64,000 nt of DNA from Pseudomonadota bacterium (GCA_040389165.1 JAZKAK010000003.1:12931-76930), one strand, 5' to 3'. Shown: positions 58,063-60,606, counted from the stretch's first letter. The notes: a model not told the origin generated them from the letters alone. Numbers and translations are program-made.

Positions 58063-60606
58063 ATGCATAGCAAAAAGGTTTTGCTCAAAATGAAAAATAA
58101 ATTCATTCTTTTACTTATCATTGCATCGCTGGGTCCTGTTTCGGACCTAATGGCGGCATCTACGTCGAGTTCTTCCGCCCGTGCAGAAACCATCGTGGAT
58201 CCTGTTCTTTTGGAGCTTATCAACAAAACGAACGGATTTGCAAACGCAGATTATACAGAAACTTCCGATGACACGGCCAGGGAAATCACTCGGAAATTGC
58301 TTAATCCATCAGCCACAAAATTTGCAACACCAGCTGAAAGAGAAGAAATCGTTAATGTTCACTTAAAAACAGAATTGTATTACGCCTTTAACACACAGTG
58401 GGGAACAGGAAAGCAACGCAATCACCGTATTGTGTACGATTTTTTAAGTCAGCTTGACAAGTCTGGCAGAGCTTCAGAGCATTTGACAATTATTACGGTT
58501 CTTTCATTAGCCGCACAGGAATATTTTTGGAACAATAAATCAACGATTGAGGATCTAAAAAGACACGTAAAGCGAGAGCTCCGTTATGGGCTTTTTAAAC
58601 AAGCTGGGCATAAACTTAACGTTTCGAACATTATCTATCTTGATGAAACGCGCCAAAATAGTGTGCTTGATCGTGTCATTGAGACCTGGATTACTGGCGA
58701 TTTAAGAGGGAAATTAGCAGGGCTCATGAATGGCTTTAAGGCAAGAAGCCTTGGAAATATTTATATCCAGATTGCAGAAGATCTGGATGCTAAATTTAGA
58801 GCTCCATTAACGCCGTTACCGTTCGACAATCTTGAGGGGGAAATATTGAGTGCTTATGGCCTGAGAGAACTGATGAATTTAAAGCCCATGGCATCTGCGC
58901 CTGATGGCATGTGCGGAGAACACAGCCTGCTCATTCCAACAGATGGCAAAGAATCAGAATACCAATCGGTAGTAGTGCAAGGAAATCGGACTCTCAAAAA
59001 AAAAGGAATTCTGGAAGGGAATGGGCGATACAAAATTCTTCGAGCCATCTTAGACAATGCGTATGATGAAGAGGCAAGGCGTTTGTATCTGTATGCTTCT
59101 AAATATATGGATGGGACTGCTTTTACTAACCTTATGGAGGAAGTAATCACCCGCCTAAGAGGCCAAAATAGTGAGGCTCAGGCTAACGAATTACACACTA
59201 AATTGATTGCCTATAAGAAATCACAAGAAGTTAAAGAAATAGAAAAAGAAACAAAAAGAACCACACTAAAAATAAGCCTACTGAGATCTGTTGTGAGTGC
59301 GCCTGAATTAAAGAATGCATTAAACACTTTTAATGAGCTATTGAATAATCCAGATTACTTATCTATATTACCAACGATCGATGGATTCAAAGATATTATA
59401 GATGCAATTAAATTAATAGGAACGAACACGGAGCCTGGCGCAGGAAATGATAGTCTAAAAAGACGGTTTTCAACTATCGAGGTGAGGTTGAATTTGCTTG
59501 ATCAACGAATAAAACAAGCAAAATTAGCTGCTGATATGCAGCTTAAATTAGCCATAACTGAGGCCGAAGGAGAAGCTGCGCTGGCTAAAAAAGAATTTGA
59601 CGAAATTAGAACTAAAAATGATGCGCTCGTTGAAACGTATCTGGAACTTAATACACTAAAAGCTGAAGCTGAAGCTAAGGCTAAAAAAGAAAAAAATGTG
59701 GCATTTGATGCAGCATTTTCTGGGGCATCTACAGCTTATTCTACCTTTATGACACCTAAAAATGAGCAGCTTTTTGCAGCAATTAGTGCTAAATTCACTG
59801 CGAAGCGTGATAAAAATAAAATAGCTAAGGCTGCAAAAGAACTTGAAGCTAATTATACGGAAAGAGACGCGTTGATAGCTGGAAAATACAAGTTAATGAT
59901 TGAAAAACTAAAAGATTTTATAGGACCAGATATGCTTCCCGGAAATACTGATGCCTTTTCCATAGATGGCCTTTGCATTCATGGCTATTCTAACTTTATA
60001 AATGATATTTGCCAAACAATATGCACATTTATCAGCCATATCACAGATACTGACTATAAAGAAACAGCAGATGAAATTGCAGCGTTATGGGATGATTTTA
60101 ATAGCAAGAAAGGTCAAATGGAAGTTCACGTGGATCAACAACTCAAGTTGAAACGTTTAGAAATAGTTACATCGCTGCATGATCTTCCTGCTGAACTTGC
60201 CCCAAATGCACTTGCGAATGAAATGGAACAGTTTGCAAGATGTCCAGGTGAATTAAGTGGATGGTTGCCATGTGATTCTAGTTATACACAATTGTGGGCG
60301 ATCATTAATAACCTAAATGTCTTTGTTTTTTCAAACGGCGAAGCTTATGGTCCAACACCACTCGACCTTATAATTCGTAATAAAAATAGTTACGATCAGG
60401 TCCTTGTGAATTATCCTGAAGGAACAAGCGAAAAGCACTTAGCTACCGTAATTTTAACATCACCAACGGCTAAAAATGTATTTTTAGATAAAGGCCCTGG
60501 CCATTACGACAAATTTATCGAACCAGATGACTATGCCGCCATGGCAAAAGCACAGCGACACCTTGAATGGATGGAACTCGCAACGAAATATGCTGCTTAT
60601 CCTTAA
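58063..60606 (+). CDS. OTU-like cysteine protease (putative deubiquitinase) with a long, largely helical/coiled-coil region between the Cys and His motifs, Sec signal
   Basis: 847 aa. PDGMCGEHSLL (D281/C284, TGC at 58912-58914) matches the OTU D-G-x-C loop. GWLPCDSSYTQLWAIINNLNVFVF plus VFLDKGPGHYDKFI (H814, CAT at 60502-60504) matches the OTU C-terminal half. Confidence 0.6.
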   Translation: MHSKKVLLKMKNKFILLLIIASLGPVSDLMAASTSSSSARAETIVDPVLLELINKTNGFANADYTETSDDTAREITRKLLNPSATKFATPAEREEIVNVHLKTELYYAFNTQWGTGKQRNHRIVYDFLSQLDKSGRASEHLTIITVLSLAAQEYFWNNKSTIEDLKRHVKRELRYGLFKQAGHKLNVSNIIYLDETRQNSVLDRVIETWITGDLRGKLAGLMNGFKARSLGNIYIQIAEDLDAKFRAPLTPLPFDNLEGEILSAYGLRELMNLKPMASAPDGMCGEHSLLIPTDGKESEYQSVVVQGNRTLKKKGILEGNGRYKILRAILDNAYDEEARRLYLYASKYMDGTAFTNLMEEVITRLRGQNSEAQANELHTKLIAYKKSQEVKEIEKETKRTTLKISLLRSVVSAPELKNALNTFNELLNNPDYLSILPTIDGFKDIIDAIKLIGTNTEPGAGNDSLKRRFSTIEVRLNLLDQRIKQAKLAADMQLKLAITEAEGEAALAKKEFDEIRTKNDALVETYLELNTLKAEAEAKAKKEKNVAFDAAFSGASTAYSTFMTPKNEQLFAAISAKFTAKRDKNKIAKAAKELEANYTERDALIAGKYKLMIEKLKDFIGPDMLPGNTDAFSIDGLCIHGYSNFINDICQTICTFISHITDTDYKETADEIAALWDDFNSKKGQMEVHVDQQLKLKRLEIVTSLHDLPAELAPNALANEMEQFARCPGELSGWLPCDSSYTQLWAIINNLNVFVFSNGEAYGPTPLDLIIRNKNSYDQVLVNYPEGTSEKHLATVILTSPTAKNVFLDKGPGHYDKFIEPDDYAAMAKAQRHLEWMELATKYAAYP

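Follow-up and report, generated by a model that had tools for sequence, protein, structure and literature searches.

Bacterial enzymes of the ovarian tumour (OTU) type continue to be reported as new families, among them diverse and permuted OTUs (PMC7396840), the Lot class (PMC7690952) and EmcB (PMC12501173). The typical OTU triad follows the arrangement C...H-aromatic-D/N/E (PMC7396840), and the helical lobe that separates Cys loop and variable loop measures 50-60 residues in typical OTUs, 110-120 in otubains and 178-210 in LotA/B/C (PMC7690952). Outside the OTU fold, the Burkholderia deubiquitinase (DUB) TssM is encoded beside and co-regulated with a type VI secretion system (T6SS) cluster, is secreted by the type II system and has been proposed to strip ubiquitin from the surface of the cytosolic bacterium (PMC10719079). 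Here we describe a gene from a Pseudomonadota bacterium, located within a 64-kb stretch of DNA (GCA_040389165.1, JAZKAK010000003.1:12931-76930; 64,000 nucleotides, the whole of which is called the window below), whose product carries OTU-like catalytic motifs on either side of a long helical insertion. Motifs and predicted structure make this protein a probable OTU-fold variant and likely a secreted deubiquitinase-type effector. The specific reading towards which we lean, with moderate assurance, is that of a Sec-exported OTU-fold cysteine isopeptidase, probably a DUB or a protease of ubiquitin-like (UBL) modifiers, whose targets would be host conjugates or the surface of the symbiont.

The open reading frame (ORF) occupies 58063-60606 (+), stop codon included, and its product is 847 aa long. 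A start at M10 (58090) is favoured both by the alignment of homologues and by the NCBI protein P0001 (838 aa, 100% identical from M10), which is labelled there just 'hypothetical protein [Pseudomonadota bacterium]'. The sequence-only reading that had singled out this ORF described an OTU-like cysteine protease with its catalytic halves about 530 residues apart, and the ORF, the strings it quoted and the Cys-His gap all lie at the positions it gave. The catalytic parts, as delimited by sequence, alignment, an AlphaFold2 (AF2) model and Foldseek searches, are these:

58798-59172 (+), N-terminal half of the OTU-like domain, residues 246-370 (AF2, alignment, Foldseek with an insertion-excised model)
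58894-58926 (+), Cys loop SAPDGMCGEHS, residues 278-288, with the C284 codon at 58912-58914 (sequence)
58948-59010 (+), beta-hairpin insert KESEYQSVVVQGNRTLKKKGI, residues 296-316, directly after the Cys loop (strands 300-305 and 309-314)
60172-60603 (+), C-terminal half of the OTU-like domain, residues 704-847 (AF2, alignment, Foldseek with an insertion-excised model)
60469-60519 (+), His strand AKNVFLDKGPGHYDKFI, with H814-Y815-D816 at 60502-60510 (alignment, AF2)
60532-60573 (+), conserved C-terminal helix with RHLEW (alignment, AF2)

A search of 5.8 billion proteins returned 42 relatives, here termed family A, and an exhaustive search of 1.8 billion cluster representatives returned 23; the homologues share 33-52% identity with the window protein and all are unannotated. 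The catalytic motifs are strongly conserved among them. S278, G282, C284, G285 and S288 are invariant in the 42 homologues and D281 is kept in 41, while H814, Y815 and K817 are kept in all 39 homologues whose sequence reaches the C-terminus. In the same 39 sequences residue 816 is Asp in 33, Asn in 3, Ser in 2 and Glu in 1. As in OTU enzymes, the Cys motif D-G-M-C-G-E-H-S follows a strand (270-276), and its C-x-x-H-S part resembles the corresponding string of the viral OTUs (vOTUs). At the other end, H814-Y815-D816 begins strand 814-819 of the full-length AF2 model, the place of the OTU general base, and the H814 codon (60502-60504) lies within VFLDKGPGHYDKFI. The separation between C284 and H814 is 530 aa in the window protein and ranges from 351 to 532 aa across family A, so that the split is a trait of the family and not an accident of assembly.

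The elements around these motifs are arranged in a similarly regular way. Secondary structure assigned by DSSP to the AF2 model places strand 270-276, the Cys loop and helices 321-331, 336-345 and 351-367 in the N-terminal half; the first of these helices corresponds to RYKILRAILDN, in agreement with the earlier expectation of a YKILRAILDN helix after the Cys loop. The hairpin insert that stands between them is present at its full length of about 21 residues in the window protein only, is reduced to 4-5 residues in five homologues and is absent from the others. The C-terminal half opens with a variable-loop-like segment, CPGELSGWLPCDSS, and continues with the helix YTQLWAIIN and the strand NVFVFS (60241-60333) and then a beta sheet; within it, GWLPCDSSYTQLWAIINNLNVFVFS (residues 733-757) is predicted to form helix 740-748 followed by strand 751-757. 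Two further features are nearly invariant, namely C737 (60271-60273) at the variable-loop position, which is Ser in 3 members, and the pair R832-H833 (60556-60561) in the C-terminal helix RHLxW, which is shared with a sister family (family B, described below). C737 was also considered as the nucleophile of a compact C737...H814 domain, and this candidate was set aside as unlikely, given the Ser in 3 members, what appears by eye to be Thr in family B, and the good fit of the C737 segment to the variable-loop/helix position of an OTU.

Fold comparison carries the argument further. The full-length AF2 model, built on the 42-sequence alignment, has a predicted local distance difference test score (pLDDT) of 84.9 and a predicted template modelling score (pTM) of 0.72, and its C-terminal part consists of helices 714-725 and 740-748, then six strands and a final helix. 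Foldseek matched this model to helical bundles only (YaxA, AhlB, dynein stalks); a search swamped in this way is uninformative on the catalytic domain, and the insertion was therefore excised by joining residues 246-370 to 704-847, with the full-length homologues providing the rows of the alignment. The excised model (pLDDT 83.4, pTM 0.80) was compared with 350,542 PDB chains, and OTU domains made up all of the top 50 matches, including Cezanne, OTUB1/2, A20, TRABID, OTUD1/3/5, the Wolbachia wMel OTU, nairovirus vOTUs and a rice otubain. The best match, Cezanne, was found with E 5.7e-4, a probability of 0.98-0.99 and 240-290 aligned columns, and since the alignments extend over 170-295 columns, both halves are covered. 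The matches of the same model in BFVD were mostly annotated as OTU or ubiquitinyl hydrolase, and some of them we take to be OTU-bearing viral proteins. The modelled elements follow one another as strand, Cys loop, helical lobe, loop, helix, strand, sheet and His strand, a predicted order that is that of an OTU domain. The OTU core fold, a central beta sheet with two supporting helices, is thus recovered with the predicted excised model, albeit with modest scores, and we regard the agreement of the PDB and BFVD libraries on OTU, not any single score, as the real signal of this model-based comparison. C284 and H814 may accordingly be pictured as meeting in three dimensions despite the 530 residues between them, a proximity that we infer from the predicted fold.

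Several results nevertheless weigh against an OTU assignment, and they come first of all from sequence profiles. Pfam, in which OTUs are represented by PF02338 and PF10275 (MEROPS C85 and C65), and NCBIfam gave no match for the full-length protein, for the 42 family A members or for family B, and no OTU or peptidase match at E<=10 for insertion-excised sequences. Searches of PDB with phmmer and hmmsearch (full protein, family profile, excised A and B profiles) returned coiled-coil proteins or noise. For a direct comparison the OTUB1 sequence was verified against PDB and an otubain alignment was built for hhalign; excised family A aligned to it with E 0.03 and a probability of 1.75% over 16-19 columns, the aligned segment being just AKNVFLDKGPGHYDKF with EPKVYLLYRPGHYDIL, which sets H814 on H265. 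Family B aligned through the Cys loop alone (GQCGFFS with GNCFYRA, C452 on C91) at a probability below 2%, which is not significant. With OTUB1 alone in place of the alignment, again no more than the His strand or the Cys loop aligned, at below 2%. Both otubain segments are in register with the catalytic residues, yet they are neither significant nor independent of the motif spotting, and OTU membership was not found by sequence profile.

The structural evidence has weak points of the same bearing. The Cys loop is the least confident spot of the full-length model (pLDDT <50 at residues 283-286), and C284 is modelled in coil and not at a helix N-terminus in both models. The matches of the full-length model contain no OTU, only the helical bundles named above, and the Foldseek scores of the excised model are modest (E 6e-4 to 7e-2, template modelling (TM) score 0.2-0.45, large root-mean-square deviation), which fits with a shared core only. 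Excision moreover makes the two halves neighbours by force, so the OTU matches rest on that construct. To these may be added the Ser at the acidic triad position 816 in two members, and the Sec signal, which is unusual among DUB effectors. Since OTU motifs and a predicted OTU fold were found and a profile match was not, the protein is described as an OTU-like fold variant only, and it is placed as such and not as a member of the Pfam OTU or Lot class. The sequence-only reading is upheld to that extent: the motifs, the element order and an all-OTU top 50 from the excised model speak for a split OTU-type protease, whereas a sequence-profile assignment is lacking, and the Cys loop is conserved as a motif but is poorly modelled. 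Of the analyses that it had proposed, the fold search with the insertion excised gave OTU domains throughout and the full-length model came out confident, while the profile search yielded no OTU match.

The same low TM scores and missing sequence membership would suit a host-directed papain-like enzyme in which this Cys/His pair, set on an OTU-like scaffold, serves a different chemistry, such as that of a deamidase, a transglutaminase, an acyl- or amino-acyl-transferase or an ester-specific ubiquitin hydrolase. The Cys loop is atypical in having Gly at +1 and in being followed by a short segment ending in IPTDG and no long helix, and the extra, nearly invariant C737 and R832-H833 point in a similar direction. 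Effectors are known to repurpose papain-like folds, as in Cif/CHBP, OspI and MavC. However, the H-Y-D strand and the D-G-x-C-x-x-H-S loop are close to those of OTU hydrolases, and the top fold matches are all OTU-family hydrolases, so we consider a different chemistry unlikely.

A second, distantly related family provides a further view of the catalytic residues. Family B comprises proteins of 755-829 aa, of which a family B profile search recovered 11 database members (e.g., P0176-P0186), all unannotated; this search found no bridge to annotated OTUs. Its genes are located at L001 3550-5817 (-), L006 867-3215 (-) and 3290-5755 (-), and L017 7360-9705 (-), and they lie upstream of, and divergent from, family A in related metagenome-assembled genomes (MAGs). 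Neither a family B gene nor a second family A copy was found in the 64-kb window. The overall identity of the two families is about 20%. A comparison of their profiles by hhalign (A1 against A6) gave a probability of 98.2% and E 3.4e-14 over residues 114-338 and family B residues 294-490, that is, the N-terminal domain and the Cys loop, with C284 on C452; BLASTP of family A against family B extended across the His strand at E 2e-8. Family B repeats the architecture of family A, namely signal peptide, helical N-terminal domain, Cys loop, long insertion, His strand and RHLxW tail, but its N-terminal part is longer and its Cys and His stand closer together, about 316 aa apart. In family B the motifs GDGQCGFFS, TQTIAEAL.IN.QVI and GGGHYEKL are nearer to the OTU consensus than those of family A. 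Judged by these alignments, family B is a genuine distant homologue of family A, and the retention of both Cys and His across two families only about 20% identical strongly argues for function.

This retention bears directly on the proposal that the gene encodes no enzyme but a secreted coiled-coil or surface protein whose Cys and His motifs play a structural part; the OTU likeness would then be an artefact of motif spotting and excised modelling. Such a protein would agree with the fact that two thirds of the sequence is helical or coiled coil, with a conservation that peaks in the N-terminal helical domain and not in the catalytic loops, and with the missing profile support and the low confidence of the Cys loop. 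C284 and H814 are, however, invariant across both families, and chance would hardly produce hit lists made up wholly (PDB) or mostly (BFVD) of OTUs in two structure libraries that are independent of each other. We accordingly regard a non-enzymatic role as very improbable, more so than a change of chemistry.

The insertion that divides the catalytic domain is delimited as follows:

59173-60171 (+), helical insertion, residues 371-703 (DSSP of the AF2 model, pLDDT mostly 85-96)
59503-59862 (+), hypervariable coiled-coil hairpin, residues 481-600 (top-residue frequency 0.18-0.28, gap fraction 0.28-0.54)

Between the catalytic halves the AF2 model is almost entirely helical, with helices of up to 46 residues (long ones at 371-411, 473-518, 565-592 and 666-703), and the PDB profile matches of this region are coiled-coil proteins only, so that its earlier description as largely helical or coiled coil is borne out. 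Conservation is moderate in the flanks (361-480 and 601-720), which include MLPG..AF.ID.LC and CQ.IC, and is lost in the core (481-600), which is hypervariable, rich in gaps and coincides with the coiled-coil hairpin. This hairpin accounts for most of the difference in length between members of about 700 and about 800 aa. Short and long paralogues of these sizes occur in tandem at L008 (4663-6756/6934-9249) and L010 (4771-6756/6931-9291), the short ones being without most of the hairpin. Measured from C284 to the variable loop (727-739), the lobe has about 445 aa in the window protein and roughly 270-455 aa in the family. It had been thought to be several-fold longer than that of the Lot enzymes; set against their 178-210 aa, the longest lobes described so far, it is about 2 times as long, and it is about 8 times as long as in a typical OTU.

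The remaining features lie in the N-terminal part:

58090-58155 (+), Sec-type signal peptide MKNKFILLLIIASLGPVSDLMA, with predicted cleavage between LMA and AS and no lipobox Cys (by eye)
58195-58797 (+), N-terminal helical domain, residues 45-245 (AF2 helices with pLDDT 90-98, block conservation)
58300-58332 (+), PAM2-like string LNPSATKFATP, judged a chance resemblance

The helical domain is the best-conserved region of the protein (ELYYAFNT, HRIVYDFLS, LSLAAQEYFWN, RELRYGLF) and is common to family B. Judged by eye, Sec-type signals are found in all or nearly all family A members and in family B, which corroborates and extends the signal first noticed in the window protein; they have a basic n-region, then some 11 hydrophobic residues, and end in an AxA-like site. 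The near-PAM2 motif that had been noticed along with it does not stand. A true PAM2 motif, which binds the MLLE domain of PABP, reads L-N-x-x-A-x-x-F-x-P and would be expected in a disordered stretch and to be kept by orthologues. It is not conserved, the homologues carrying LAPSRDKIATA or LTPLANRIATP and having I, V or H in place of the Phe in most cases; it has an extra residue before the Pro; and it is located in a loop of the folded helical domain, between helices 66-79 and 90-109. PAM2 was consequently rejected for the window protein.

The genes that follow were inspected as well. In the adjacent ORF at 60833-61732 (+), with a probable start at 60998, an N-terminus like that of a signal peptide precedes KKPFVFNPEATEFQP, which matches PAM2 more closely than the string of the OTU-like protein does. 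It is the sole match to [LFIMV][NS][PVA].A..F.P in six frames of the window, where 0.07 would be expected per shuffle, and N-P-x-A-T-x-F occurs in both proteins. The C-terminal part of this ORF is TPR-like by eye; the ORF has no Pfam match, and no relatives of it were found in metagenome contigs. The product of the next gene, 61840-62868 (+), is a 2-oxoglutarate (2OG)-Fe(II) oxygenase (PF03171/PF14226). It appears to bear a Sec signal, MSKLKTALLYIIAISCTLFPVTFA, and export is unusual for a dioxygenase. With it, three successive genes, the OTU-like gene and the two immediately downstream of it, encode proteins whose N-termini resemble signal peptides. Across 58-62 kb the GC content is 0.38-0.40, compared with about 0.43 elsewhere in the window. 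Farther away, an ankyrin-repeat protein with a signal-peptide-like N-terminus (7707-10103, +), a protein of 831 aa that contains a DXD glycosyltransferase motif region (648-3143, -) and a patatin-like phospholipase (32283-33539, -) look directed at eukaryotes, as do the two downstream products, and are candidate host-interaction genes.

The MAGs that carry the relatives are assigned to Ca. Finniella inopinata, Ca. Finniella sp., Ca. Odyssella sp. and Alphaproteobacteria, and are those of Holosporales-type protist endosymbionts; the source organism of the window appears to fall within the Finniella/Odyssella (Paracaedibacteraceae-like) protist-endosymbiont group. In these genomes the gene has a characteristic neighbourhood. 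Among 18 other loci, family A lies directly upstream of tssF and on the same strand in 17 (L001-L011, L013-L015, L017, L018 and, from gene calls, the P0004 locus; e.g., L017 10001-15531). The gap to tssF is usually about 70-150 nt, with larger values of up to about 350 nt (P0004 gene calls) and about 1.4 kb (L010); tssG comes after tssF wherever the locus DNA extends far enough. The order of genes in the linked loci is TsaD-MFS-(family B)-family A-TssF-TssG. On the P0004 contig, a VgrG-like gene is located about 8 kb upstream. The window protein itself matches no Tss Pfam family, and tblastn detected no tssF or tssG in the 64-kb window, whose copy thereby breaks the linkage pattern.

It can be speculated from this linkage that the protein is an OTU-fold enzyme working outside the ubiquitin system, that is, one that serves the non-canonical T6SS of Holosporales as an accessory factor in the periplasm or envelope and does not act on the host as a deubiquitinase, with the coiled coil as a periplasm-spanning arm. 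In a variant of this proposal it would be a surface-tethered DUB whose arm helps it to sweep ubiquitin from the outer membrane of the symbiont itself. As an envelope factor it would be co-inherited with tssF-tssG, family B would be taken in as well, and the Cys/His domain would serve as a peptidase on a bacterial substrate, e.g., local peptidoglycan or a T6SS component, the arm being a spacer or an anchor. Coiled coil plus Cys/His peptidase is the layout of exported cell-wall hydrolases of the PcsB/CwlO type. Besides the adjacency to tssF, this proposal can draw on the Sec-type signal seen throughout the family, which T6SS cargo normally does not have, and on the T6SS of Holosporales, which is near-universal in the group and non-standard, with some core genes undetectable and its secreted molecules and substrates not known (PMC11909080).

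Four observations speak against an envelope factor. The window copy has no tssF or tssG beside it. Collinearity extends upstream to TsaD and MFS, so that the position next to tssF may reflect synteny passed down among related genomes. The PDB fold matches of the excised model are all OTU, and no NlpC/P60 or CHAP structure occurs in the top 50. Finally, rapid evolution, tandem paralogues and variation in copy number are unlike a structural component; between L017 and L005, family A is 49% identical, compared with 85% for TssF and 79% for TssG. A divergence faster than that of TssF and TssG, combined with tandem paralogues and a hypervariable arm, is what host-interacting proteins often present. 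We thus hold a role as a T6SS envelope factor, its surface-tethered variant included, to be improbable.

Returning to the Sec-exported OTU-fold isopeptidase, the following mode of action can be envisaged. C284 would act as the nucleophile in the D-G-x-C-x-x-H-S loop, with the general base provided by the H814-Y-D strand. The insertion would consist of a conserved helical module and a hypervariable antiparallel coiled-coil arm, and the enlarged helical lobe may reshape substrate recognition or positioning. The protein would be exported by Sec and then be released across, or displayed on, the outer membrane, where its most likely activity would be the removal of ubiquitin or ubiquitin-like modifiers from host proteins or from the bacterium's own surface. 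That it acts as an isopeptidase, on which substrate it does so, how it gets past the inner membrane and what the insertion does are matters that we infer, whereas the motifs and their conservation, the insertion itself, the predicted OTU-like fold, the signal-peptide-like N-terminus and the taxonomic and genomic surroundings are observed.

If true, this would bring the OTU fold to a new bacterial lineage, the Holosporales protist endosymbionts, for which a review (PMC11909080) and one genome paper make no mention of ubiquitin, OTUs or DUBs. It would also provide an OTU fold with a Sec-dependent export signal and with a helical lobe about twice the Lot-class length. We contend that enzymes of this kind escape Pfam and hidden Markov model searches and surface in a fold comparison only once the insertion has been taken out, which is a lesson for the mining of effector DUBs. 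In OTU enzymes the helical lobe forms the S1 ubiquitin-binding site, and a lobe of 450 residues with a variable arm would thus test the limits to which substrate recognition can be rebuilt. The tssF-tssG linkage, for its part, makes family A a concrete candidate for the study of the Holosporales T6SS.

Comparison with known systems places these features in context. Burkholderia TssM resembles family A in combining Sec-dependent export (type II in the case of TssM) with T6SS gene adjacency, but it has a USP fold and no giant insertion, and the parallel is one of genomic context and export logic only. In enzymes of the A20/Cezanne type the OTU domain is larger and additional helices precede the Cys loop, and one of these enzymes (OTUD7B, PDB 5LRW) is the best Foldseek match, although at a TM score of about 0.3. 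Their acidic triad residue precedes the Cys (PMC7396840), whereas family A has the standard H-aromatic-D arrangement. The otubains (OTUB1/OTUB2, PF10275) come close in motif, in that OTUB1 P263-D267 is identical to the P-G-H-Y-D strand and D88-C91 matches the D-G-x-C loop, and OTUB1 structures rank 3-4 in the fold search with the excised model. They have the longest helical lobe among classical OTUs, and are eukaryotic, cytosolic and without a signal peptide.

The Lot OTUs (LotA, LotB/Ceg23 and LotC) are like the window protein in being bacterial, in belonging to intracellular organisms and in having an OTU-type Cys...His arrangement. The specific relation to LotA/B/C that had been considered at the outset received no support, as no sequence similarity to them was detectable in PDB sequence and profile searches and the top 50 fold matches include no Lot structure. 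The window protein exceeds their range of lobe length about 2-fold, and has in addition a hypervariable coiled-coil hairpin and a conserved N-terminal domain of 200 aa; it is alphaproteobacterial and bears a Sec signal, while the Lot enzymes are Dot/Icm-translocated. Given that new bacterial OTU-like families keep being reported, family A does not form a new category, and it is unusual in the size of its insertion, in having a Sec signal and a sister family, and in its linkage to the T6SS.

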